Source: Roseibacillus sp.
GTDB taxonomy: Bacteria > Verrucomicrobiota > Verrucomicrobiia > Verrucomicrobiales > Akkermansiaceae
Assembly (NCBI GenBank): GCA_051251855.1
Contig: JBPOGI010000006.1
Coordinates: 192,001 to 256,000, forward strand
Length of the DNA: 64,000 bases
Direction: 5' to 3'
The notes under the pieces were generated by a model. The model was given only the letters and a program-made list of their open reading frames with translations, made no database searches and was not told where the DNA came from. This document shows positions 43,802 to 58,114 of the stretch, piece by piece (position 1 is the first letter of the stretch; every line of letters starts with the position of its first letter). Both the position numbers and the translations under genes were made by a program.

Positions 43802-45207
43802 TCTGCGCCTTCGTCGCTTTCTGCGCAGGATTTTTGCCAGGCTTCGAATTTCTGAGAGAGGTCGGCCACGATTTCAGGATGGTCCTCGGCGAGGTTGTTC
43901 TTTTCGGACGGGTCTTTGATGAGGTCGTAGAGGGACCATGAACCTTTCTGGTTTCCTCGGTAAATTTTGTATTGCTGAGTGGACCAAGCCGCAGTCTTGC
44001 GACATTGGAAACCGATTCCTTTTTTGCGTTCGGTTTCTTCACCAGTCATCACGGGAAGAAGTGAGATGCCATCGAGTGGGCGCTCTCCCTTGTAGTCGAC
44101 CTGCACCGCATCGAGAATGGTGGGGAGGTAATCACTGGTGACGGCGGGGAACTCAGTGACGGTGCCCGCTTTGACTTTGGCCGGCCAAGCGAGGATGCCT
44201 GGAACTCGCACGCCTCCTTCGTTGAGGCTTCGCTTGCGTCCCTTGAAGTGAGCCGCGGACCCTGGGCTCTTGTTGTTTCCTTCCGGGCCATTGTCGGAGC
44301 AGAACCAAACCATGGTGTTGTCGGCGACCCCTGCTTCTTTGAGAGTTGCGCGCAAGCGACCGACTTGGTCATCCATCGCGGTGACGCAGCCATTGTAGTT
44401 CTTTTCAAAGTCGCTCACTCCGGGATACATCGCCGCGTATTTCGGTCCCGCCACAACGGGGAGGTGGGGGGTGTGAAACCAGACGACGGCGAAGAACGGC
44501 TTCTTTTGTTCAGCGGATTGTTCGACGAAAGGAACGACGCGGTCCATGATGACGCGGGAGTCGTCTCCTGCGAGATTTTCGCGCACGACCTCGCCCTTTT
44601 CATTCCAGTAGTGAGTGCCATAGGGTTTCGCAGTGGAGGGGGCTTTGATGACATCCCAGCCCTTGCCTCCTCCGTTCCAGCCTTCTTTATCACCGGGCTT
44701 GAGCATGGGGTCCCAAGTGGGGACTTTGGATTCGGTAGAGAAGCAGACCTCGAAGCCGTTTTTCCAGGGCGGGCTAAAGTGCTCGGTGTCTCCGGGCTTT
44801 GCGCGGTTGGCATCCTTGATCTCGGTGGTGAGGGTACCAAGGTGCCATTTTCCAAAGTGTCCGGTTGCATAGCCTTTTTCTTTGAGAAGTTCGGCCAGGG
44901 TGAGTTCTTCGGTCTTCATCTTGCCCGTGTTGGCGTAGTAGATGCCATAGCGGAAAGGATGACGGCCCGTGATGCTGGAACCGCGAGTGGGGCTACAGAC
45001 TGGCGAAGAAGAATAGAAGCGGTTGAACTGCATCCCTTCCTGAGCCATGGCATCAAGGTGGGGAGTCTTGATGGGGGTCTTCGGGTTGAAGCATTGCACG
45101 TCTCCCCATCCGAGGTCGTCTGCCATCATCAGGATGATGTTCGGTTGTTCGGCGGCTTGAGTGGCCGCGAGTCCGGCGAAGAGGCTGAGAATCAGATTTT
45201 TGAGCAT
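43795..45207 (-). CDS. Sulfatase (Cys-type, family S1)
   Basis: Signal peptide from ATG 45207, PNIILMMADDLGWGD, CSPTR and GKWHLG. Confidence 0.92.
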   Translation of the reverse strand: MLKNLILSLFAGLAATQAAEQPNIILMMADDLGWGDVQCFNPKTPIKTPHLDAMAQEGMQFNRFYSSSPVCSPTRGSSITGRHPFRYGIYYANTGKMKTEELTLAELLKEKGYATGHFGKWHLGTLTTEIKDANRAKPGDTEHFSPPWKNGFEVCFSTESKVPTWDPMLKPGDKEGWNGGGKGWDVIKAPSTAKPYGTHYWNEKGEVVRENLAGDDSRVIMDRVVPFVEQSAEQKKPFFAVVWFHTPHLPVVAGPKYAAMYPGVSDFEKNYNGCVTAMDDQVGRLRATLKEAGVADNTMVWFCSDNGPEGNNKSPGSAAHFKGRKRSLNEGGVRVPGILAWPAKVKAGTVTEFPAVTSDYLPTILDAVQVDYKGERPLDGISLLPVMTGEETERKKGIGFQCRKTAAWSTQQYKIYRGNQKGSWSLYDLIKDPSEKNNLAEDHPEIVADLSQKFEAWQKSCAESDEGADY

Positions 45208-45617
45208 GGTTCTAATTTTTGGAAAGCGTGGGTGAGATTTTGACGCGAGTCGATCATTGGTTTTACTGGGGGAGGCGTTGTTCTCTTCCAACGATGAATG
45301 AATTTCTGAGGACTCAAGTGTCCTTGTCGTTTTTGACAAAGAGAACGATGCCCAGCTCGAGGTCATTTGTCGCAAGCTCGGAGGAACCATCGAAGTCATC
45401 ATCGAAGACAAAGGCCACAGCCACGGCCAAAAGGAGCTGGCTACGAAGAAGCGTTTTTACGAGTTCGTGAGGGAGAACACCTTTCGAGTGCCGAAGTGAG
45501 TGTTGCTGGGGAATGAGGGAGCATCCCAGCCACCGCCGCTTTTCGATGGGGGGAGCTTGAGAGGGGGGAATCAACGGAGCGAACGGTTTCTGAATTATTT
45601 GTCTGTCCAACTACGAC
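45207..45617. repeat. 411-bp direct repeat, copy 1
   Basis: Gap-free match to 49592-50002, about 93 percent identical by manual count. Confidence 0.92.
45326..45499 (+). pseudogene. 3' remnant of an alpha/beta hydrolase gene
   Basis: ENDAQLEVICRKLGGTIEVIIEDKGHSHG resembles ENDAIMEQRYKALGGSIKVIIENKGHSHG of the 37353-38873 protein; an upstream in-frame stop and no credible start. Confidence 0.8.
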
Positions 45618-45618
45618 G

Positions 45619-45695
45619 GTAAATCTTGGGGTTTTCGATTTTAGCGTTTTGACCTTCAGTTCTTTATGCTGATGGTGGTTTTGCGGTGACGTGAT
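45619..45695. repeat. 77-bp block identical to 53584-53660
   Basis: GTAAATCTTGGGG...GGTGACGTGAT exact duplicate. Confidence 0.92.
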
Positions 45696-45993: not shown

Positions 45994-46857
45994 CTACGAC
46001 GCGAGGAAAAGGAGGAGTTCTCGTAGCAGCTTGGCGGCGACGACGGAGGAGACGTCGCTGGCGTCGAGGGTGGGGGCGAGTTCCATGAGGTCGAGGGCGA
46101 CAATGTTTTCTGGGGCAAGGGCAGCGAGGAGGGATTCGCAGGTGGCCCAATCGATGCCACCGGGTTCGGGAGTGCCGGTTCCAGGAACGAGTGAGGGATC
46201 GAAGACGTCGATGTCGAAGGTGAGGTAGAGGGGGCGTCCTTTGAGGCGGGAAAGCGCAGTGGTGAGGGCTTCCGCAGTGGGCGCGACGAGTCGGTTCGTG
46301 GCGCGCATTTCTTGAAACTCCTCGCGGGTGCCGGAGCGGATTCCTACTTGGAGGAGGCGTTCTGCAGGCAGGAAATCGAGGATGCGCCGCATGGCACAGG
46401 CATGGGAGTGGGGGGAGCCATTCCACTCCTCCCGCAGGTCGGCGTGGGCATCGAATTGGACCACGGCGAGGTCGGGGTATTTCTCGAAAGCAGCACGCGC
46501 CGGTCCGGGGGTGATGGAATGTTCGCCACCGAGAATGACCGGAATGGCATTGGCTGTTAGAATCTCGATGGTGGCGGAGTAGGCGGCCTCGATGACTGGT
46601 TCGGGTGCACCGTGAGGAAGAGCGAGATTACCGAGGTCGGTGAAAAGAAGGTCTTCCAAGTCCCGATCTTGGGCGGGGGAGTAGGTCTCGATTCCGTCCT
46701 CGCTCACCCTGCGCACTCCGTCCGGCCCCCAGCGAGTTCCGGGCCGGAAGGACGTGGTGCCGTCATAGCCGATTCCGAGGAGGGCGGGTTGTCCGGACTT
46801 GAGTTCAGCACCAGTCGAGGCGATGAAGGGGGCGGAGTTGGGAGGAATAAGGTCCAT
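45994..46857 (-). CDS. speB: Agmatinase
   Basis: YDGTTSFRPGTRWGP, GGEHSIT, FDAHADLR and DIDVFDP..PGTGTPEPGG. Confidence 0.92.
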   Translation of the reverse strand: MDLIPPNSAPFIASTGAELKSGQPALLGIGYDGTTSFRPGTRWGPDGVRRVSEDGIETYSPAQDRDLEDLLFTDLGNLALPHGAPEPVIEAAYSATIEILTANAIPVILGGEHSITPGPARAAFEKYPDLAVVQFDAHADLREEWNGSPHSHACAMRRILDFLPAERLLQVGIRSGTREEFQEMRATNRLVAPTAEALTTALSRLKGRPLYLTFDIDVFDPSLVPGTGTPEPGGIDWATCESLLAALAPENIVALDLMELAPTLDASDVSSVVAAKLLRELLLFLAS

Positions 46858-46864
46858 GGTTTTG

Positions 46865-48091
46865 TTAGGCCAGGCGGTGTTTGAAGGTCTTGTAGCCAAA
46901 TTTTCGAGCCACCTTGAGGGAGCCGTCTTCGCGCAGACAAGTGATGGTTGGGAGGGGGACTCCGTTGAAGGTGTTGTTCTTGACCGTGGTGTAATGGGCC
47001 ATGTCTTGAAAAAGGATTTGGTCACCAATTTGGAGGGGCTCGTCAAAGCTGTAGTCGCCAATGACGTCGCCTGAGAGACAGGTCGGTCCTCCGAAGCGGT
47101 AGGTGTGAGCCTTTTCCCCCGGTTGCCCACTTCCGAGCACGTCGGGGCGGTAGGGCATCTCCAAGACGTCGGGCATGTGGGTGGTGGCCGAGACATCGAG
47201 CACCGCGACCTGCATTCCGTTTTCGACAATGTCGATCACGGAGCCAATGAGCACGCCTGCTCCCGAAGAGATGGCTTCGCCAGGTTCAAGAAAGATGTCC
47301 AGCTGGGGGTAGCGTTCCTGCACTTCACGGATGAGGCGGGTGAGAAGAGGGACATCGTAGTTGGGGTTGGTGATGAGGTGTCCGCCTCCCATGTTGAGCC
47401 ACTTCATTTGCTGTAGATAGGGGTCGAATTTGGCGATGACATGTTCGAGGGTGCGCTCCAAGGCGTCGGCTCCTTGCTCGCAGAGAGTGTGGAAGTGTAG
47501 GCCTTCAATCCCAGTCAAGTCTGCTCCTTCTAACAAGGATGCCAGCACTCCAAAGCGTGAGCCTGGTGCGCAGGGGTTGTAAATCTCCGCCACCGCTTCG
47601 GCATACTCGGGATTGATGCGTAGACCGGGTGAAATTTTGCGGGAGGAATTGAGAAGCTCACCGCGATAGCGCCGCCACTGGCTGAGGGAGTTGAAGACGA
47701 TGTGGTCCGAGATTTCCAGTAGTTTCGTGATTTCAGCGGGCTTGTAGGCGGGCGAAAAGACGTGCACTTCGCCTCCGAATTCCTCGGCTGCAAGACGGGC
47801 TTCGTAGTAGCCACTCGCGGTGGTGCCGGCGAGGTAGTTGCGCAGAATGGGGTAGATGCTGGTGCTGGAGAAGGCCTTCTGGGCGAGGAGGATTTTGGCG
47901 CCGGTGGCGTCCTGAACGGACTTCAGAATTTGTCCGTTGGAGTGAAAGGCCGCTTGGTCGAGGATATAGGCGGGGGTGGCGAGACCGCTTTTCTGGAAAG
48001 AGGAAGCGATTTCAGCAAGAGGAGTGCGCTCCCGGTGTTGGGGTGGGAGGGTTTGGTGGGATTGGGTTGGTTGAAAGTCTGAAGAATTCAT
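46865..48091 (-). CDS. nspC: Carboxynorspermidine/carboxyspermidine decarboxylase
   Basis: LLAQKAF, LRINPE, YNPCAPGSRFG, GLHFHTLCEQ, HMPDVLEMPY, CLSGD and HYTTVKNNTFNG. Confidence 0.93.
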   Translation of the reverse strand: MNSSDFQPTQSHQTLPPQHRERTPLAEIASSFQKSGLATPAYILDQAAFHSNGQILKSVQDATGAKILLAQKAFSSTSIYPILRNYLAGTTASGYYEARLAAEEFGGEVHVFSPAYKPAEITKLLEISDHIVFNSLSQWRRYRGELLNSSRKISPGLRINPEYAEAVAEIYNPCAPGSRFGVLASLLEGADLTGIEGLHFHTLCEQGADALERTLEHVIAKFDPYLQQMKWLNMGGGHLITNPNYDVPLLTRLIREVQERYPQLDIFLEPGEAISSGAGVLIGSVIDIVENGMQVAVLDVSATTHMPDVLEMPYRPDVLGSGQPGEKAHTYRFGGPTCLSGDVIGDYSFDEPLQIGDQILFQDMAHYTTVKNNTFNGVPLPTITCLREDGSLKVARKFGYKTFKHRLA

Positions 48092-48116
48092 GGAGAAAAA
48101 ATGGGAAAGGATTTGA

Positions 48117-48148
48117 AAAGAAGAGAGGTCCCGCAGAAGAGCGGGGCC
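48117..48148 (-). terminator. Terminator-like hairpin inside the polyamine operon
   Basis: Minus strand GGCCCCGC-TCTTCT-GCGGGACC followed by a pyrimidine/U-rich run. Confidence 0.4.
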
Positions 48149-48232
48149 GAGGGTAGCAACAGAAGCACGTAGGGTGCTTTTGTTTGTTCGTTTCAAAGGG
48201 CGCAGCGCGGTTTCTTCAACCAGCGACTGCGC

Positions 48233-49450
48233 CTACAGACTCAATTCTTGATCAACTTCAAGGACATGCCAGGGGAGGCCCCAGGCATTCAAGTCGTCCA
48301 TGAAGGGATCAGGATCGAGCTGCTCCAAGTTCCACACCCCGGGACGCAGCCAAGCTCCGGAAATGAGTTGTCTTCCTCCGATCATCGCCGGGACCCCAGC
48401 GGTGTAGCTGATGGCCTGGCTCTTCACTTCCGCGAAGCATTCCTGATGATCACAAATGTTGTAGATGAATTTCGTCTTCCACTCCCCAGTCTCTTGGCAC
48501 TTGCCAGTGATGAGGCAGCCGATACAGGTTTTGCCCTTGGTGAGGGGGCCCAGCGAGGCGGGGTCGGGGAGCACTTTTTGCAGAAACTGGAGGGGAGAGA
48601 TTTCGGTGTCGCCAATGGTGAGGGGCTCGATATCAGTCATGCCCACGTTCTCGAGAACGGTGAGGTGATTGATATAGTTGTCCGAGAAGGTCATCCAAAA
48701 GCGAATGCGCTCGAGGCCCGGGAGGTTGAGGGCCAGGCTTTCCATCTCCTCGTGATGCAGGAGATAGATTTTGCGGGTGCCGATGTCTTCGTGTGGGAAG
48801 TCGAACTCAGTCGAGACCGCGAGTGGCTCGGTTTCCTTCCATTCTCCTTTTTCCCAATAGCGGCCGGGAGCGGTGATTTCCCGGATGTTGATTTCGGGGC
48901 TGAAGTTGGTGGCGAAGGGCAAGCCGTGATCGCCAGCATTGGCATCGATGATGTCCACCGTTTTGATTTCGCTGAAAAAGTGCTTCAGGGCATAGGCGCA
49001 AAAGACATTGGTTACCCCGGGGTCGAAGCCCGAGCCGAGAATGGCAGTGAGACCGGCTTTCTCGAAGCGCTCCTGGTATTCCCACTGATACTTGTATTCG
49101 AAGTGGGGGTTCTCCGGGGATTCGTAGTTCGCGGTGTCGAGGTAATGGACCCCCGCTTCCAAGCAAGCCTCCATCAGGGTGAGGTCTTGATAGGGCAGGG
49201 CAATGTTGAGGAGGTAGTCGGCCCCGACCTCTTTGAGAAAAGCAGCGGTCGCGGTGACATCGTCGGCATCCACTTGAGCGGTCTTGAGCTCCACGCCGGT
49301 CGCGGCCCGGATGTCAGCGGCAATGGCGTCGCACTTTTCTAGGGTGCGGCTCGCGAGCCAAATGGTGCCAAAGGTCTCGGCATCCTGGGCGCACTTGTGT
49401 GCGACCACGTTCCCGACCCCTCCCGCTCCGATAATGACCGTCGTTATCAT
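48233..49450 (-). CDS. Carboxy(nor)spermidine dehydrogenase (saccharopine dehydrogenase family)
   Basis: IIGAGGVG, ALPYQDL, YLDTANYE, GSGFDPGVT and FATNFSPEINIREIT; directly upstream of nspC. Confidence 0.9.
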   Translation of the reverse strand: MITTVIIGAGGVGNVVAHKCAQDAETFGTIWLASRTLEKCDAIAADIRAATGVELKTAQVDADDVTATAAFLKEVGADYLLNIALPYQDLTLMEACLEAGVHYLDTANYESPENPHFEYKYQWEYQERFEKAGLTAILGSGFDPGVTNVFCAYALKHFFSEIKTVDIIDANAGDHGLPFATNFSPEINIREITAPGRYWEKGEWKETEPLAVSTEFDFPHEDIGTRKIYLLHHEEMESLALNLPGLERIRFWMTFSDNYINHLTVLENVGMTDIEPLTIGDTEISPLQFLQKVLPDPASLGPLTKGKTCIGCLITGKCQETGEWKTKFIYNICDHQECFAEVKSQAISYTAGVPAMIGGRQLISGAWLRPGVWNLEQLDPDPFMDDLNAWGLPWHVLEVDQELSL

Positions 49451-49591
49451 CAACAATTAATCAGAGCGGGGATTTCCTTTTTCTTGAAGATTTAGTCAAT
49501 CTCATTTTCTTTTTGGACACGCTTTTGTGATGAGGCTAGGGAGGGATTTTAGAAGGAGAATGGTCAATCATTTGTCTGTCCCACTAAGACG

Positions 49592-50002
49592 TGGTTCTAA
49601 TTTTTGGAAAGCGTGGGTGAGATTTTGACGCGAGTCGACAATTGGTTTTACTGGGGGAGGGGTTGTTCTCTTCCAACGATGAATGAATTTCTGATGGCTC
49701 AAGTGTCCTTGTCGTATTTGACAAAGAGAACGATACCCAGCTGGAGGCCATCTATCGCAAGCTCGGAGGAACCATCGAAGTCATCATCGAAGACAAAGGC
49801 CACAGCCACGGCCAAAAAGAGCCGGCTACCAAGAAGCGTTTTTACGAGTTCGTGAGGGAGAACACCTTTCGGGTGCCCAAGTGAGTGGTGCTGGGGAATG
49901 AGGGAGCATCCCAGCCACCGCCGCTTTTCGATAGGAGGAGCTTGAGAGGGGGGAATCAAAGGAGTGAGTGGTTTCTCGATTATTTGTCTGTCCAACTATT
50001 GC
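49592..50002. repeat. 411-bp direct repeat, copy 2 (contains the hydrolase remnant at 49711-49884)
   Basis: Matches 45207-45617. Confidence 0.92.
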
Positions 50003-50135: not shown

Positions 50136-53100
50136 CTAGTACAGAAGTTCTTGTTCTTGAAAGGCGTTGGATTCTGTTAGGTCGATTGCTCTTAGCCCGT
50201 GCATGCTAACTCCGACCCTATACTTTACTGCGGAAGATGAAACGATCTTGCTGAATAAGTCCTCGGATCCTTTCGTTCTATATGACCTAATAAGCATGTC
50301 CGATTCTTTGTCTCGAATTACTGCAAAACGAGCATGGACTTCAACAACCTGACCTAGATTCCAAGTGTTTAAAGGGTATAGAACCTCAGTTCCTAGACGA
50401 GGCGGAAACTTGGTTATTCTGACTGTAGAAAAATGTTCTTCACAATCAGCATACCTCCTTGCTCTAAAGCATTCCCTTCCGTATCTCATCTGAGCGTCGA
50501 AGTTTGAATCTCCGGGTACGAACGCACGCTTGAGATGCGCTAGAGCTTTTTCAGGGTTACCTGCTGAGTCCATGAGAAATTTTCCGTATACACCATTTAC
50601 ATGACGATCGTTTCTCTTTTCTTCTAGGCAGCGTAAGAGAACATCTTCGGCCTTCTCTTTTTCGTTTTTGGCCAAATAGCAAGAATGAAGCTGCAAAGCG
50701 ATGTAGGGGATACTAGGGTTGCTTTCAAATGCAGCTTCCAAACTGGAAAGTACTGAACCGCTGTCTCCAATCAATTTAGCAAGTTTAGCTTTCGCGTCTA
50801 AGAGGTAGCTGTCGTCTGGGTGCGTCTGCAGAAAAGTTTCGACGTCAATTTGAGCTGGCTTGATTAGTTCACGAACGACAACGGGCGAGATGGAGTCTGG
50901 GTTCTGCTCTAGCACAGCTTGAGCCCTTGCAATGCCGATTTTCGCCAGAGTATGTTTAACATGGGAGGTTTTGCTTGTCTTAGCTAGTTGCTTACATGCA
51001 CGTTCTGCTCGACGTAAAAGCCGTTCCTTTACGCTGGGAGAATCGGAGACCTCTGCCCTTCTCAATAAGAGTTCGGCCGCAGTATGCTTAAAGAACGAAT
51101 TTCCGGGGCTAGCTTTTAAAGCAATGTCTATGTGGTGTTGTGAAAGCTCAAGGTCACCGCCCTTTCTTCGCATTTCAAATACCGCTCGTTGATGAAAAAT
51201 GTTGGGATTGCGTTGGCTCTTATCTTCTGCCAATGCAAAAATCTTCTCGACGTAGGTTGTGTCTGAAAACAATTCATTTAGAACCCGTCCGCGGGTGAGT
51301 TCTTTTAAGGCAGTTTCGTCGCTTTGGTAAGCCATGTTTAGTTTCTGGATGACTTTGAAATACTCCTCAAATCTATCGTTCTGGTCTGTCAGAATTCTTA
51401 AAAAGACAATTTCTGCAATGTATGGATGTCGCGCAAAGTAGACGTAGTCACGTGCTAAGTTGTTGTACTCGTTCCCTACGACGCCTTCAAGTGGAGAGAA
51501 GAGCCTCTTTTTGAAGTCTGAGTAAGGAATAGAGTGAATCCTAGATATGAGCATTGCTCTTACTGGGACGGCAAGCCTGTTTAGCAAGCAAATCGTCAAG
51601 TAAACGGCTCGTGCTTCATTAGTGGACAAGCTATCGTACTCATCCTGAATTATCTCTTCAAACGGTTTTCCTTTTGTTACCTCGTATAGGGCGACGAGGA
51701 GATTTCTTTTTGCGGAAACTCGAAATTTTTCAGCGCATTCTGCTTGGGTAAGACCTTCGAGTTCTCCAAGGCAGCCAGTTTCTGTTAGGCGTTGAACAAG
51801 AGAAAGTATTTCTTTTTGGGATAAGTCTCCCATCTCAAACTCTCTCACTGCGATAAAATTAAATCGAGATTTAAACCGGCTCCAATCGTTTGTCCTTACG
51901 CCGCCAACAAAAGTCACCATTTTGGCAGAAGCTCCTAGACTTGAAACACACTTTTTTAGGTTCGATGATTCGCTTCCAACATCGTCAATAAAGACATAAA
52001 TACGTTGCTTGGTAAGCTCGGCTAACTCGGCAATTGCCGCTGAGTTAAGGTCGCTTGGACGCTCGATGTAAAGAGCAAACCCCTCGTGTTCATGGGTAAG
52101 TTCCCAGCTGAGTCGTTTAAGAGCAATAGTCTTTCCTGCGCCAGCGTAACCTCTTAAGAGAATTAGTTCGCATTCTTTTGGGGTATTCTGTTTTTCCTCT
52201 AGAAATACTTCGATTATTATATCTTCGGAAATTTCTCGAACTACATCCCACTTCTGGAGAATAAAGCTCCATCCGTTACTGTTACCGTTAAAAAATTGTT
52301 CCGAGGTGATGTCTCCATCCTTAGGTTCTATTGAATCTACAAAGACAGCGTCGTTTTGTAAGAATAGTGAAGCGTTCTTCGAAAGTGACATCTTTGGTGA
52401 TGTGAAGTGGCTTCTGAGAGTTGGAGGCATTTTTACGTCGGCTCTGAAACCTCTGAAGTCATCGCTAATGAGCGAGTCAAGAGCTTCCATGAAACCGTCA
52501 AAATCCGCGTCGATAGTCGAGACTTTTCGGTTTTCCCACATTTTGTTTTCGACCTCAGTCCAACCTGGACGGACAAAGTAGAATCTCATCCTGTCTTCGA
52601 TGTCATCTCCGACTCGAGTAATAAAGCGACGAATATCTAAGTCAGAACCGCCATATCCGACGAAAATGAAAGTGTATCTCTTCGCCCACTCTTCAAACGT
52701 ATCGAAGAGACTTTTTCTGCCCTCTTCGACATCAAGATATTGGTCCAAAGATAAAACGAGTTTTACTGATTTAGGACCCATATTATCGAAGCAGCCGTGA
52801 AGCTTTAAATATGGAAGATCGTTTTCGTCTTCGACGATACGTTCGAGGTGATCGTCATATACAATCGGTCTTAGATTTTGTGGGCTCGTATCGTCTGCGC
52901 TGTAACTTTTTTCGACGATTAGATCGTAATTTGTAGTAGCTAATCCTGCCCAGCTAAACTTTGGTAGTAGCTTGTGAGCCCTGCCGGGTTTGAAATCTTT
53001 GAAGGAATCTTTCACGAAATTCTGCACGGTTGCTGTGCTAGTATCGGAAATAGCGCATTCTGCGATCTCGGCTAAAGAACCTCCAGACATCTGATTGTTT

Positions 53101-53255
53101 AGGAATTTTTCAGATAGAAGCTTCCCCAGTTGGTTGGCCAAAGGGGGAGGGGTTCCTTCCGAGTCTTTGGCAGCAAGAGAAGCACCTGCGCCTAGAAACA
53201 AAACCACATTACCCTGTTTTACGAATTCGACTAGATTTGGGTGGTTTTCAAGCAT
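50136..53255 (-). CDS. SIR2-like domain, P-loop (STAND-like) NTPase, TPR region and possible C-terminal OB/cold-shock-like domain; candidate anti-phage protein
   Basis: LFLGAGAS, TTNYD, KLHG and FVGYG..D (SIR2_2 type); GYAGAGKT and IYVFIDD; long helical-repeat region; AT-rich relative to the flanks. Confidence 0.85.
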   Translation of the reverse strand: MLENHPNLVEFVKQGNVVLFLGAGASLAAKDSEGTPPPLANQLGKLLSEKFLNNQMSGGSLAEIAECAISDTSTATVQNFVKDSFKDFKPGRAHKLLPKFSWAGLATTNYDLIVEKSYSADDTSPQNLRPIVYDDHLERIVEDENDLPYLKLHGCFDNMGPKSVKLVLSLDQYLDVEEGRKSLFDTFEEWAKRYTFIFVGYGGSDLDIRRFITRVGDDIEDRMRFYFVRPGWTEVENKMWENRKVSTIDADFDGFMEALDSLISDDFRGFRADVKMPPTLRSHFTSPKMSLSKNASLFLQNDAVFVDSIEPKDGDITSEQFFNGNSNGWSFILQKWDVVREISEDIIIEVFLEEKQNTPKECELILLRGYAGAGKTIALKRLSWELTHEHEGFALYIERPSDLNSAAIAELAELTKQRIYVFIDDVGSESSNLKKCVSSLGASAKMVTFVGGVRTNDWSRFKSRFNFIAVREFEMGDLSQKEILSLVQRLTETGCLGELEGLTQAECAEKFRVSAKRNLLVALYEVTKGKPFEEIIQDEYDSLSTNEARAVYLTICLLNRLAVPVRAMLISRIHSIPYSDFKKRLFSPLEGVVGNEYNNLARDYVYFARHPYIAEIVFLRILTDQNDRFEEYFKVIQKLNMAYQSDETALKELTRGRVLNELFSDTTYVEKIFALAEDKSQRNPNIFHQRAVFEMRRKGGDLELSQHHIDIALKASPGNSFFKHTAAELLLRRAEVSDSPSVKERLLRRAERACKQLAKTSKTSHVKHTLAKIGIARAQAVLEQNPDSISPVVVRELIKPAQIDVETFLQTHPDDSYLLDAKAKLAKLIGDSGSVLSSLEAAFESNPSIPYIALQLHSCYLAKNEKEKAEDVLLRCLEEKRNDRHVNGVYGKFLMDSAGNPEKALAHLKRAFVPGDSNFDAQMRYGRECFRARRYADCEEHFSTVRITKFPPRLGTEVLYPLNTWNLGQVVEVHARFAVIRDKESDMLIRSYRTKGSEDLFSKIVSSSAVKYRVGVSMHGLRAIDLTESNAFQEQELLY

Positions 53256-53550: not shown

Positions 53551-53660
53551 AATAAGATGCCAGGTATCCAGTAGAAAACTGCTGTAAATCTTGGGGTTTT
53601 CGATTTTAGCGTTTTGACCTTCAGTTCTTTATGCTGATGGTGGTTTTGCGGTGACGTGAT
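53551..53660. repeat. About 110-bp element end, with a diverged direct copy at 57925-58030
   Basis: AATAAGATGCCAGG(T/C)ATCCAGTAGAA 25/26 identical, then shared TTCAGT, TTATGCTGATG and TTGCG. Confidence 0.7.
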
Positions 53661-53713
53661 TCAATAATTTGTCTGTCCAACTACAACGATAATTCGTCTA
53701 ACCAACTACGACG
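53656..53713. repeat. Tandem pair of the recurring TTTGTCTGTCCAACTACGAC motif
   Basis: Two 25-bp units; other copies at 45586, 45969, 49559, 49971 and 50018, partial at 53391. Confidence 0.85.
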
Positions 53714-53769
53714 ACGAAATACGACTACGTCCAACTTTCAGCACTCTTGAACGTAGTCAGTAGCAGGGA

Positions 53770-54156
53770 TTAAGCGATACAAAGATAGCCGCCTCCTTTG
53801 GCTGCGATCATCGACGAATAATGTGTGGACAAATAGCCGCCTCCTTTGGCCGCGATCAGCGACGAATGTGTGGACATATAGCCGCCCCCTTTGGCCGCGA
53901 TCAACGACGAATGTATGGACAGAAAGCAGTCTTCCTTGAGCGCGTTCAGCGTCATATGGGCGATTGAGAAACCACCTCCCTTGGCCGCGACTAGCGACGG
54001 TTGGGCGAACAAATAGCCGCGGCTATCGTGGGCCGATTCCCCCCTTTGCTCGCAAGCTTTGGAGCGAAACGTCGCTTCGGCTATAGGGCTTGAGTCTGAC
54101 GTGTTGAATGCCAGAAGCTCAATGGATAGAAAGAAGGCAATGATGATGTTTTTCAT
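53770..54156 (-). CDS. Secreted repeat peptide with four SL(I/V)AAKGGG(Y/F)-type units; candidate precursor peptide
   Basis: MKN plus hydrophobic signal-like N-terminus; 48-51-bp coding repeats with synonymous third-position changes. Confidence 0.78.
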   Translation of the reverse strand: MKNIIIAFFLSIELLAFNTSDSSPIAEATFRSKACEQRGESAHDSRGYLFAQPSLVAAKGGGFSIAHMTLNALKEDCFLSIHSSLIAAKGGGYMSTHSSLIAAKGGGYLSTHYSSMIAAKGGGYLCIA

Positions 54157-54177: not shown

Positions 54178-55230
54178 TTATTTAGAGGAGGTGAGATTGG
54201 CGTAGGTCAGTGCCAACATGAAGGGCTGAGCATTAGGATTGTCAGGCTGATCGTAGGCTTTTGCTTTTTTTGCGAACTCGCGTTGGAGGCGGGGAAGATC
54301 CTTTTTGAAATCCATGATTGCGTCATCGTCGAGCTGTCCAACGAGATACTGAAAGCGGGAGCCTTCGAGGCTCAAATCATAAACGACTTCATACATGCTC
54401 GATGCAGCCTCTCCCAGTGCAAGTCGAAGCAATGGGCAAGCGGTCATCAATAATCCAGCGTTCCAACCAGACTTCCCGGAAGTTGTCCGAGTGGGAGAAA
54501 TTGCTTGTTGCTCTCGTTTAGCGAGCTCTTTGAAGGCGGGGTTTCCGCCCGAACTAGGATGAAAATCCTTAAACAGCTGCTCGGCGTCTTCCTTAGTAAG
54601 ATGAAGCGTCCAAGATTCTCGAAGCTTTGGATCCTGGTGCTTGAGGATTTCCATACAGTAAGGCTGAGCTTCGAGCTTAAGATCGAGTTCGCCAACGGTT
54701 AGCGGCGGGGAGTAAATGTGACTGACGAGCTTGTAAATGCGCCGTCCAAGATCTAGACCATCCCGTTTGAGCATCCCGCCCTGCTCAAGCTGGTCGAGAA
54801 GACCGCGCATATTTATCTGGTTGACGGCGGGTCTCATCCCCTCCGGTAGTTCATGCTCCTTGATAGTTGAATTGAGAGGAAGAGCGGCAAGCTTTTGAAT
54901 CATTCTGTCGAGAGTAAACCACTGTGTTACCATTTCATCCTGGTCAAACTCGACCTCAAGCCGATCAAAGTCAATTTGGTTAAGGTTCTTGAAGGTTACG
55001 CCTTGCAGAGACGCCGCATAGCCGGTAGTACGACCCGTATTCTCGCTATTTTTGCTGCGCAAGGCTCGGAGGAGTTGTTGCAGTATGTCATTGGGGACAC
55101 CGAGATCGTTTGCGCTAGCCGCCAAACGATAGGCGTCTCGCACAAAATTCCCAAACTTGTTGTTTTTTAGTAATAAGCGGTGAATTATACCGTTACGTCT
55201 GGCGATCTTTTCTCCTTTGGTGGCAGGCAT
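54178..55230 (-). CDS. Hypothetical protein, probable winged-helix regulator with a duplicated C-terminal alpha/beta domain
   Basis: MRGLLDQLEQGGMLKRD...IYKL wing-like segment; two units resembling DUF4423/DUF6502-type C-termini (by eye only). Confidence 0.55.
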   Translation of the reverse strand: MPATKGEKIARRNGIIHRLLLKNNKFGNFVRDAYRLAASANDLGVPNDILQQLLRALRSKNSENTGRTTGYAASLQGVTFKNLNQIDFDRLEVEFDQDEMVTQWFTLDRMIQKLAALPLNSTIKEHELPEGMRPAVNQINMRGLLDQLEQGGMLKRDGLDLGRRIYKLVSHIYSPPLTVGELDLKLEAQPYCMEILKHQDPKLRESWTLHLTKEDAEQLFKDFHPSSGGNPAFKELAKREQQAISPTRTTSGKSGWNAGLLMTACPLLRLALGEAASSMYEVVYDLSLEGSRFQYLVGQLDDDAIMDFKKDLPRLQREFAKKAKAYDQPDNPNAQPFMLALTYANLTSSK

Positions 55231-55300: not shown

Positions 55301-55320
55301 CAGGGAAAATTTTTTTCCTG
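55301..55320. promoter_or_regulatory. Palindromic operator-like site upstream of the regulator-peptide unit
   Basis: CAGGGAAAATTTTTTTCCTG; overlaps a possible minus-strand promoter CTGTCA-16nt-TAGATT. Confidence 0.6.
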
Positions 55321-55348: not shown

Positions 55349-56248
55349 TTAGCGAGGACCTCGATTCAATGAAGACCTAGGCTTCCATTGGAATGTAATG
55401 CCTAGACCCGCAAAGATGACCAAGGCGATGCCTCCGATTTGGGACGGAGCCAACCTTTCTCCGTAAATTAGCCAATCGAAGCCGAGAGCGGCAATCGGAT
55501 AGACATAGGCCAACACCGCAAACAAGGGCATTGGGGTTCGCTGAACCGCGAAATAGAGCAATGAATAGAGTAATCCGGTGTGGACGACGCCCAGGATGAT
55601 AAGGCTTGCCCACTGCTCCGCACTTGAAGGCAAAGCGCTAAAATCTAAGAAAGGAAGGAGAAGCCCCGCGCCCAGAGCGGTCTGAATTAGGGCAAGAAGG
55701 GGCGCTGGAATTGTTTTGATGACCCGTGTAGCGAGCGTAGTGACGGCGTAGAGAATAGCTGCGGCGATCGCCAAAATAATTCCAAAAGAGGTATTCGGTT
55801 GGGAGGAACCCAAATTTTCCAGATCTAACGTTAGGGTGAGTCCAGCGAACGCTCCAAGAATCCAGAACAGATGGTGTGCCGCGAGGCTTTCACGCAGAAC
55901 CAGTGCGCCTAGCAAGAGTAAGATCAAGGGTTGCGTGTGATAGGCAATGGTGGCCATACCGATAGGAATGTAGCGAAAGGCTTGGAAGAGCAAAACCCAG
56001 TTGATGACGAGCGCAAGACTGGACAACGAGGCCAGCGTGAGTTGCCTACGGTTGATCAGGGTTTTATCGGGCAGAGCCACTCGCGTGTATACGCCAGCCA
56101 AGGCGATAGCTCCGAAGAAGCAACGAAAGAAGGCTACGTTCAGAGAGCTTTGGCCGGATGTTTTGACGAAAAATCCAATGGAGCCAGCCAAGGTCATCGC
56201 GACGAGCATAGCCGCCGGTCCTCTCCAACTAGAAGGGTTAGAATTCAT
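55349..56248 (-). CDS. EamA/DMT family transporter
   Basis: About 10 transmembrane segments; NVAFFRC, NWVLLFQAF, YHTQP, LGVVHTG and YVYP. Confidence 0.92.
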   Translation of the reverse strand: MNSNPSSWRGPAAMLVAMTLAGSIGFFVKTSGQSSLNVAFFRCFFGAIALAGVYTRVALPDKTLINRRQLTLASLSSLALVINWVLLFQAFRYIPIGMATIAYHTQPLILLLLGALVLRESLAAHHLFWILGAFAGLTLTLDLENLGSSQPNTSFGIILAIAAAILYAVTTLATRVIKTIPAPLLALIQTALGAGLLLPFLDFSALPSSAEQWASLIILGVVHTGLLYSLLYFAVQRTPMPLFAVLAYVYPIAALGFDWLIYGERLAPSQIGGIALVIFAGLGITFQWKPRSSLNRGPR

Positions 56249-56267: not shown

Positions 56268-57461
56268 TTACATTGAGAGGACGACTTCTTCCTGTTCGCT
56301 GTAGGTTAAGGGTGAACCAAGATTGGCTGTTCTAGGTAGTTCGCTTAGGCGCCGGAAGGTTTCCTGAATGGGAGCCTTAATCCCCCAGTATTCTGTGTAT
56401 TCAGGCAATCGCCCAGCATCGCTAAGGACGGCATCACGACGGGCATAGGCAGCAGTAGCCCACTGAGGAGTCTTTGGGTGCCAATGATGGAAATCATGAC
56501 TGGGAAGGTCACCGGGGATAATGGCGATGCGGTAGGGGAGATCGACCAACAAAATTCGGGCCAGCCAGCAGTTCCAGGCGATGACTGCTTTAAAGCCATT
56601 AAGGCCGGAATCCGGTGCGCAAACCCCTACGAAACGACCGCTGGTGACACTGGCCATCACCTCTTTTGAGGAGCTTTCACCCTCGCCCAAGCGCACCCAT
56701 TGATGCAGCCCAAGCAAACCAACCCAAGCAGACATTTGACTGAGGATTCCGACGGGCAGAACGTAAGCAAGCACTAGAGCAGTCCATTGATTTGTCACAG
56801 CCGTAAGGATGAGAAGAGTGCTGACCCAGGCGATGGCAGCTAAACGTCGGGGTCTGCTCGACCGAACGAAGTTTGCGCGCAAGCGAGCTCGCAAGAAAAG
56901 TGCGTGAAACCTCGGTGAGAGCAGTGAAAGCCAGAACCGTCGCCAATATTCTGGGATGCTCAAGCCGGGTTCGAGGCCACAAACCTGGACCATAAACGCA
57001 AGGTCGGGATCATCTGTTGTAGCCACCTTTGCGTGGTGGTGCATGTGACCCTTGCGATACTCAGCCAGCGGATGAGTCAAGGTAAGGACGCTGACAAGTT
57101 CGCCGAAAAAATCATTGATTCGGGAATTCTGGAAGAGCATCCCATGCGAAGCGTGGTGAACCACGCCGGTTTGGAACACTCGGACGCTGCGAATAGTGAA
57201 AAGCCAAGCTAATAACAATAGCGTCCAGAAACCTTTGGGGAGCTGAAGGAGCAATAGGGCTGCTGCGAGAGAAATAACGAATGCTGCGATCTCCACGACT
57301 ACCCGCATAGGGGGCGTCCATTTGATCAGAGGAAGCTCACCGGGCAAGGCTTTGCCCGTGAGCGCGGTCAACATCGGCTGTGTCCATTGAGGGAGCTGTG
57401 CCATAGATGCACGGCGGTCAATGGTCGAAGGGGCGTTTTTGGGAAGATGTGGTTCTTTCAC
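56268..57461 (-). CDS. Fatty-acid-desaturase-superfamily membrane di-iron enzyme
   Basis: Three His boxes (HHASH, HMHHH, HDFHH) with intervening transmembrane segments. Confidence 0.85.
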   Translation of the reverse strand: MKEPHLPKNAPSTIDRRASMAQLPQWTQPMLTALTGKALPGELPLIKWTPPMRVVVEIAAFVISLAAALLLLQLPKGFWTLLLLAWLFTIRSVRVFQTGVVHHASHGMLFQNSRINDFFGELVSVLTLTHPLAEYRKGHMHHHAKVATTDDPDLAFMVQVCGLEPGLSIPEYWRRFWLSLLSPRFHALFLRARLRANFVRSSRPRRLAAIAWVSTLLILTAVTNQWTALVLAYVLPVGILSQMSAWVGLLGLHQWVRLGEGESSSKEVMASVTSGRFVGVCAPDSGLNGFKAVIAWNCWLARILLVDLPYRIAIIPGDLPSHDFHHWHPKTPQWATAAYARRDAVLSDAGRLPEYTEYWGIKAPIQETFRRLSELPRTANLGSPLTYSEQEEVVLSM

Positions 57462-57522: not shown

Positions 57523-57541
57523 GGGAGAAAATTTTTTTCCC
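57523..57541. promoter_or_regulatory. Palindromic operator-like site upstream of the desaturase-EamA unit
   Basis: GGGAGAAAATTTTTTTCCC; shares GAAAATTTTTTTCC (14 bp) with 55305-55318. Confidence 0.6.
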
Positions 57542-57890: not shown

Positions 57891-58114
57891 TTTGGGTGTG
57901 TTGACTTGTTGGACTCCGCTTGAGAATAAGATGCCAGGCATCCAGTAGAATACCGGCGCAGATTTTGAATCCCTTGGATGAGTTTCCACTCATTTTCAGT
58001 CGGTTATGCTGATGTTGATGTTGCGATGGCCCTGGTGCGATTGGAGCGGATTGAGCTTTTGGAATGCCTCACTTCGGAATGAGGAGGATGGGCGAGGCTC
58101 TGCCCGAGGTATTT

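Follow-up and report, generated by a model that had tools for sequence, protein, structure and literature searches.

Peptide pheromone systems in which a secreted pro-peptide is encoded beside its regulator are textbook knowledge in Gram-positive bacteria. In the RRNPP(A) systems (PlcR-PapR, NprR-NprX, Rap-Phr and AimR-AimP), a regulator gene is followed by a small gene for a pro-peptide bearing a signal peptide. The pro-peptide is processed by housekeeping proteases and re-imported by an oligopeptide transporter, a model that we borrowed for the mechanism proposed below. In E. coli, the acid-shock protein Asr is a periplasmic repeat protein that undergoes a second cut within its chain, at Ala-Ala, where the sequence is similar to a site for signal peptidase; no open-access paper confirming this processing detail was found. 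Asr differs from the product of the peptide gene described here in being a highly basic protein of the chaperone type, and Pfam gave no match between the two. Gram-negative precursors with a Sec signal and short Lys-x-Gly repeats are those of the oxazolins (HvfA, Buf_EGKCG) and bufferins (PMC11252979, PMC12452194), and for HvfA no cleavage to single units was observed in the available part of PMC11252979. The available text of PMC5686067 describes Prc as a degrading protease of low specificity, acting on substrates whose C termini are nonpolar; its P1 pocket is small and hydrophobic, its P2 site is polar, and its PDZ domain may bind the new C terminus arising after each cut. No published account of the peptide described here was found in open-access text. 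Among the literature matches listed there was no natural peptide of the AAKGGG kind, judged by title, and no pheromone system with a secreted pro-peptide beside a regulator in Verrucomicrobia.

The window analyzed is a stretch of 64,000 nucleotides from a Roseibacillus sp. genome, and positions refer to it. The gene content points to a marine member of the Verrucomicrobia as host. The peptide gene is the last of four genes on the minus strand. The other three encode a membrane diiron fatty-acid-desaturase-like oxidase of 397 aa with conserved His boxes (56268–57461; PF00487, E=7e-14), an EamA/DMT exporter of 299 aa (55349–56248; PF00892, E=4e-33) and a 350-aa orphan (54178–55230), a probable helix-turn-helix regulator on the lead given by its Atlas neighbors and on the operator-like sites described below. 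A gap of 21 bases separates the stop of the 350-aa ORF from the ATG of the peptide gene. As in RRNPP(A) systems, a small gene with a signal peptide, here judged by hydropathy, directly follows a predicted regulator gene, and the host has a predicted oligopeptide import route, with two family-5 ABC binding-protein loci (PF00496, above cut-off). Unlike in those systems, the precursor has six units and the host is Gram-negative, so that processing would be periplasmic.

The region from ~49.4 to 58.1 kb had no match in eight congeners, whereas the flanking genes matched in several of them. Intergenic repeats downstream of the peptide gene (53551–53720), parts of which recur at 57925–58028, bracket the four-gene cassette. 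Together, these results indicate that the cassette is a genome-specific insertion. At the corresponding site of one congener (L099, G004:C1:457000-467600) there was a different gene set, including, by eye, a regulator-like ORF adjoining a DMT-like transporter.

A 14-bp near-palindrome, GGAAAAAAATTTTC, is a candidate operator upstream of the 350-aa ORF (55305–55318, minus strand), and a second copy lies upstream of the desaturase gene (57527–57540, minus strand). A genome-wide count gave only these two copies in 4.96 Mb, and allowing one mismatch gave no more. As a control, any shared 14-mer was found in 7 of 1256 neighboring upstream pairs versus 8 of 20000 random pairs; most of the seven shared it via longer duplicated elements. 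Because the element is unique to the two predicted operons of the cassette, these are probably co-regulated. A promoter scan gave nothing above chance, and Rfam gave no matches at 44–59 kb. Ahead of the gene for a 52%-identical desaturase, at a distance of ~117 bases, there is an A-tract/T-tract motif resembling the 14-mer (L009:4683, plus strand); that desaturase gene adjoins a divergent ECF sigma gene, and such tracts occur elsewhere too in the loci of desaturase relatives.

The sequence-only reading had described a 128-aa ORF with a signal-like N-terminus, four AAKGGG(Y/F) motifs and one in-frame Tyr insertion, all of which are present. The ORF starts with ATG and runs from 54156 to 53770 on the minus strand, AAKGGG begins at residues 57, 87, 102 and 118, and the inserted Tyr codon is there too. 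A hydrophobic stretch follows Lys2 at the N-terminus (hydropathy over nine residues at best 3.2), though it is short and has Glu13 near its end. The repeats, given there as 48–51 bp, have a tandem period of 45–48 bp (motif spacing 30, 15 and 16 aa); TRF reported a period of 45 with 3.0 copies at 53785–53921. All four cores are intact, and two decayed units had been overlooked, so that the total is six. The 30-aa gap between motifs corresponds to two periods and contains the decayed unit S-I-A-H-M-T-L-N-A-L-K-E-D-C-F. Residues 43–57 form a further, partly decayed unit, with 11 of 18 nucleotides identical in the first six codons (p=0.002). Contigs from four of four seawater runs of one study covered the ORF with no differing letters and no gaps; these are possibly the source of the DNA, and thus weigh against an assembly slip rather than give independent support.

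The predicted Sec signal peptide would comprise residues 1–16 (54109–54156), with Lys2, nine hydrophobic residues, Glu13 and the end ELLA. Judged by hydropathy it is plausible but marginal, with its short h-region and Glu13, and its end has the top score in the boundary profile described below. In the pro-region (residues 17–42, 54031–54108), Ala26 (SSPIA) and Ala42 lie on a 15–16 period, and the DNA likeness to the repeat unit was not significant (p=0.07 to 0.5). Read from the AKGGG register, residues 43–128 are HDSRGYLFAQPSLVA, AKGGGFSIAHMTLNA, LKEDCFLSIHSSLIA, AKGGGYMSTHSSLIA, AKGGGYLSTHYSSMIA and AKGGGYLCIA; most units have 15 aa, one has 16 and the last has 10. Unit 1 (residues 43–57, 53986–54030) was recognized by DNA identity to the units, and has the decayed core HDSRGY and the end SLVA. 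Unit 2 (residues 58–72, 53941–53985), delimited by boundary profile and unit comparison, has the core AKGGGF and ends in TLNA. Unit 3 (residues 73–87, 53896–53940) was assigned by substitution counts and unit comparison, with the decayed core LKEDCF and the end SLIA. The core AKGGGY is found in the remaining three: unit 4 (residues 88–102, 53851–53895; TRF and unit comparison), ending in SLIA, unit 5 (residues 103–118, 53803–53850; unit comparison), with the extra Tyr and the end SMIA, and the short unit 6 (residues 119–128, 53773–53802; boundary profile and unit comparison), with LCIA as the C-terminus of the protein. The three Cys (35, 77 and 126) occupy no repeated position.

With respect to chance, a 5-mer recurring at least three times was seen in 3 of the genome’s 1038 small ORFs with a signal-like start, and by self-similarity the peptide ORF ranked 6th of 1795. 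In the AAKGGG block, which was chosen for this test after its conservation had been seen, all five variable sites were synonymous third positions (chance 0.002). The selection on the protein suggested earlier was upheld when the four intact copies were compared over their full unit length, with 12 synonymous versus 9 replacement changes where 28% synonymous were expected (p=0.005), and failed to reach significance for the three tandem copies alone (4 versus 3, p=0.10). Across six frames compared, the synonymous share was highest in the ORF’s own frame. In the ten conserved codons, unit 1 differed from the tandem copies with a pS of 0.57–0.82 and a pN of 0.09–0.16. This synonymous pattern signifies that the repeats have been read as protein, at least historically; on this pattern and the 3n periods, we rejected the idea of non-coding DNA hairpins. 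The gene is a real, selected orphan gene for a multi-unit peptide of the secreted type, in a probably co-regulated cassette.

Homologs of the peptide were searched for widely. In 185,579 genomes we obtained 600 pattern matches, none of them confirmed, and in the protein database none of 130 candidates among proteins of 70–224 aa. The sequence-only reading had allowed for homologs occurring only as parts of large surface proteins; none was found among 875 candidates in proteins of 225–2000 aa, which is weak evidence. There was none in the Atlas, none on plasmids beyond a single E=4 match, and in viral contigs the tandem DNA pattern gave two matches, both out of frame within the gene for an unrelated protein. 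Neither the peptide nor the 350-aa protein had a match in five genomes carrying a desaturase relative. The 128-aa sequence and its Met68 form were both absent from the protein collection. A single-motif pattern matched in 10 of 401 phylum genomes; among the 23 listed loci outside the own genome, 16 (G105, G425) were a non-coding interspersed repeat and seven were chance. The repeat in question (27 matches in G105 and seven in G425; L038-L063) has a short hairpin and translates as IAAKGGG by chance.

A candidate processing rule comes from the ends of the units. All five unit boundaries and the C-terminus, LCIA followed by the stop, fit an x-L/M-x-A motif, including the boundary at position 72, which precedes a core that lost its GGG. 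In that decayed unit the GGG is gone and the T-L-N-A-x-K register is kept. A C-terminus profile, built from 14 distinct C-termini of the secreted CxxC-repeat family presented below, placed positions 16, 118, 102, 87, 58, 128, 72 and 57 as the top 8 of 125 in the peptide ORF, with the limit that the repeat units are copies of one another and their matches therefore not independent. Boundary 42 (GESA) was outside the 14 best positions. KGGG and GGG[YF] scored at background, as expected from the construction of the profile and thus not as independent evidence. The score of the LCIA C-terminus was reached by 1.5% of 1999 C-termini of the genome, and a random 15-mer carries such a motif fairly often (~1–2% per position).

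The family from which the profile was drawn is unnamed in NCBIfam and lacks a consistent match in Pfam. Within the same bacterial family, 41 of the 121 genomes carry it (L030-L034, L106-L134), the own genome included, where it is the second signal-plus-repeat gene (G000:C1:1892480-1892790, L030), apparently continuing into contig C12 (L035). The search returned 29 loci, from which 26 proteins were recovered, 25 of them complete. Their layout is a signal followed by CxxC cores, each with a spacer ending in T/A/V/L-L/I/V/M-A, every repeat closing with a spacer such as GTLA, AVIA, TLIA or PALA. A C-terminal [LIVMF]A was present in 24 of the 25 complete members versus 41 of 1999 background ORFs, a count that leans upward, the search profile having been drawn from members already ending in the motif. 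The CxxC loci were not seen to share a regulator or a modifying enzyme. Like the peptide ORF, these proteins have a signal peptide, a pro-segment, a repeated core with spacer and a protein end in hydrophobic-Ala. Unlike it, their cores are rich in Cys, Lys and Asp and mostly start with GK, where those of the peptide ORF start with AK, and their spacers are acidic. In the own genome the C1 gene was the sole match to the family profile, the peptide ORF giving none. The likeness is thus one of layout and a four-residue motif, not of homology.

The earlier proposal of a polyprotein precursor therefore stands in part. An exported multi-unit precursor under selection is best supported, and the cut at the KGGG/aromatic junction is not supported, as a decayed unit without GGG stays in register and LCIA, rather than GGG or an aromatic residue, forms the end of the protein. 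The peptides of about 16 aa it foresaw match one unit, most having 15 and the last 10. Moderate evidence from the unit ends favors a putative cut after xLxA over one at GGG/aromatic.

Since the motif is common to all internal boundaries and the C-terminus, it suits a C-terminal processing protease, and three genes of the Prc family scored above the TIGR00225 cut-off in the genome. In the mechanism we propose, signal peptidase would remove residues 1–16 of the Sec-exported precursor. A periplasmic protease of the Prc/CtpA type would then bind the nonpolar C-terminus LCIA and cut after the next upstream xLxA. Every cut would expose a further C-terminus of this type, and the units would be released one by one: AKGGGYLCIA, AKGGGYLSTHYSSMIA, AKGGGYMSTHSSLIA and AKGGGFSIAHMTLNA, with average masses of 952, 1643, 1480 and 1475 Da, plus the two with decayed cores. 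For these two steps we see the chances as evenly balanced. Afterwards, an oligopeptide ABC transporter would import the peptides, which would bind the 350-aa protein, and this would act at the 14-bp sites, controlling both the operon that encodes it and the desaturase-EamA pair. The pair would likely make or convert, and then export, a small metabolite of the amino-acid type. These later, signaling steps, taken alone, are doubtful. The reading as a whole, that of an exported precursor cut at xLxA into 10-16-mers that start with AKGGG(Y/F) and serve as ligand of the adjacent regulator, is tentative, falling somewhat short of an even chance.

More broadly, Verrucomicrobia may have an undescribed short-peptide route, in which a housekeeping C-terminal protease would unzip Sec-exported precursors that have xLxA at the end of each unit and at the C-terminus. 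The CxxC family would then release CxxC peptides, and the cassette would encode a Gram-negative AKGGGY... pheromone, whose receptor, an orphan regulator of a non-TPR kind, would turn on the oxidase and exporter genes. This generalization is speculative and we consider it improbable in its entirety. If true, the case of a non-TPR receptor would widen the class of peptide pheromones, and the processing rule (unit end equal to protein end, xLxA) would also explain the CxxC family in its 41 of 121 genomes.

The 350-aa protein found itself alone among 1.84 billion representatives, and was found in none of 60 relatives. In the Pfam scan it had no match, with no HTH, TPR or DUF4423 domain detected, and there was nothing meaningful in PDB sequences, PHROGs or PADLOC. 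Its language-model (Atlas) neighbors were DUF4423/HTH clusters at 0.77–0.86, below the 0.9 lead level, with the DUF4423 lead at 0.81. Because of this lead and the operator-like sites, we call the protein a probable regulator. AlphaFold models, including a single-sequence one, had pLDDT values of 36 and 40 and were unusable, making a fold search on them meaningless. Membership in DUF4423/TIGR02147 was not confirmed, PF14394 being unmatched in hmmscan and in the genome search; among the literature matches listed, the open-access texts mention this family only in passing. RRNPP membership was rejected, as no TPR family was found in Pfam and NCBIfam scans. An ECF sigma factor was also dismissed: a profile of the 26 own ECF sigmas gave 2.1 bits versus 5.4 for the reversed sequence, and the hhalign probability was 0.7%.

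The desaturase-like oxidase scored below the cut-offs of the named NCBIfam models. It resembles the FAD-like oxidases of amino-acid metabolite clusters in its desaturase fold with His boxes and in adjoining an EamA-type exporter, and differs from them in being joined to a peptide gene. With NF041365 (GntB) it reached 39.8 bits versus a cut-off of 380, and it was far under every named model. The closest relatives were 31–52% identical, with 48–52% for the nearest desaturases (P0002-P0006), on contigs of up to 12 kb. Distant relatives on plasmids stood with HDO, 2OG dioxygenase, ATP-grasp or NRPS genes and with EamA, MFS or AzlCD exporters; closer relatives, in metagenome-derived genomes, were without such partners. 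The desaturase profile matched none of 400 other phylum genomes and 3 of 301 in the phylum of G546, and the available part of PMC13185094 added nothing on the family. Peptide-like repeat ORFs were found at none of 12 relative loci scanned, several of them on short contigs, nor at two further loci read by ORF list. As the relatives’ loci examined are without such a peptide, there is no support for a modifying role of the desaturase, and modification of the peptide is unlikely. One locus (L094) had an unrelated repeat lipoprotein-like gene 2.5 kb from the desaturase relative, and another (L006) a repeat ORF without signal. Close relatives were often near STAND/NACHT, trypsin-STAND or MoxR-type loci (L006, L009, L010, L104, L105), which may reflect defense islands; Pfam supported these neighbors at L006, L009 and L105, supported only the trypsin at L104, and gave no support at the L010 fragment.

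Other readings of the peptide gene have to be weighed against release at xLxA. KGGG-[YF] is the most conserved stretch of the repeat and Gly-Gly is a known leader cut site, both of which count for cleavage of a polyprotein between KGGG and the aromatic residue, or behind the double glycine, into ~16-aa peptides ending in KGGG. Such a cut would leave a 5-residue tail and has no boundary in the decayed unit, and double-glycine leaders stand in place of a Sec signal, not after one. Membership in the double-glycine-leader class was also rejected, a C39 peptidase/ABC exporter having no matches in the 95%-complete genome (control positive, 7/14), and we regard this cut as extremely doubtful. An uncut product deserves more weight, although we think it unlikely: an exported, disordered periplasmic or secreted repeat protein, serving either as a buffer for metal or stress, rich in His and Ser, or as a subunit of an amyloid-like structure, with a nonpolar C-terminus that sets turnover only. 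His is found in most units, and the cassette is without a dedicated protease. According to the available texts, HvfA/oxazolin was seen in E. coli only whole or signal-cleaved (PMC11252979) and proteins with nonpolar ends are degraded by Prc (PMC5686067), a protease of such low specificity that the C-terminus could be a mere degradation tag. Unit-by-unit release explains better why the repeat end is the protein end, here and in 24 of 25 CxxC members; the decayed units have lost the core yet keep the boundary motif, and there is no His in the last unit or in the upstream half of the first intact core.

Decay has also left its marks on the gene. Two of six cores are decayed, a Glu lies within the signal, the ORF is an orphan absent from the protein collection, and selection among the three youngest copies was not significant, as expected of a relic brought in with the cassette, now little or not expressed, in which the last three units are a recent tandem amplification. 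However, the reading frame runs uninterrupted between the signal and the stop codon, the repeats show just one indel, of a complete codon, and pS far exceeds pN between unit 1 and the tandem copies, which makes a relic rather improbable. Very unlikely is a RiPP precursor in which the desaturase-like enzyme oxidizes Lys or Tyr of the core before export by EamA or Sec. The enzyme is encoded in the same cassette, the upstream element is common to both operons, and repeat precursors with a signal peptide exist, in the bufferins and oxazolins (parts of PMC12452194 and PMC11252979). Against it, the desaturase relatives stand alone or with small-molecule enzymes and exporters of the amino-acid type, no such peptide occurs in the 12 scanned and two read loci or in the five genomes holding a relative, and the genome is without MNIO or C39 peptidase. 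Membership among the MNIO RiPPs was rejected, with no PF05114 matches in the genome (control positive in Caulobacter) and no Cys per repeat; unlike the oxazolin and bufferin precursors, the intact AKGGG(Y/F) cores have no Cys.

Several further features were seen in the window and elsewhere in the genome. A gene at 50136–53255 (minus strand), with a GC3 of 0.42 versus a genome mean of 0.60, encodes a 1039-aa protein with SIR2-like, nSTAND5 NTPase and TPR parts, and is likely an anti-phage defense gene in the same insertion. A dispersed intergenic repeat with the core CGTCGTAGTTGGACAGACAAAT was found at 45.5–46.0, 49.5–50.1 and 53.66–53.72 kb of the window and on contigs C1, C6 and C9, with roughly 10–20 genome copies and no Rfam match. 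Upstream of two different operons there is a 407-bp duplication, 94% identical (45207–45613 and 49592–49998), and positions 45619–45695 are identical to 53584–53660. On contigs C2, C3 and the start of C10 of the same genome (G000), a ~110-bp repeat with GTT-type ends lies upstream of successive genes, resembling integron attC sites by eye. At 45994–49456 (minus strand), saccharopine-dehydrogenase-like and PLP decarboxylase genes, recognized by Pfam, were found with a third gene that we take to be agmatinase-like, and we assume that the cluster probably encodes a carboxynorspermidine polyamine pathway.
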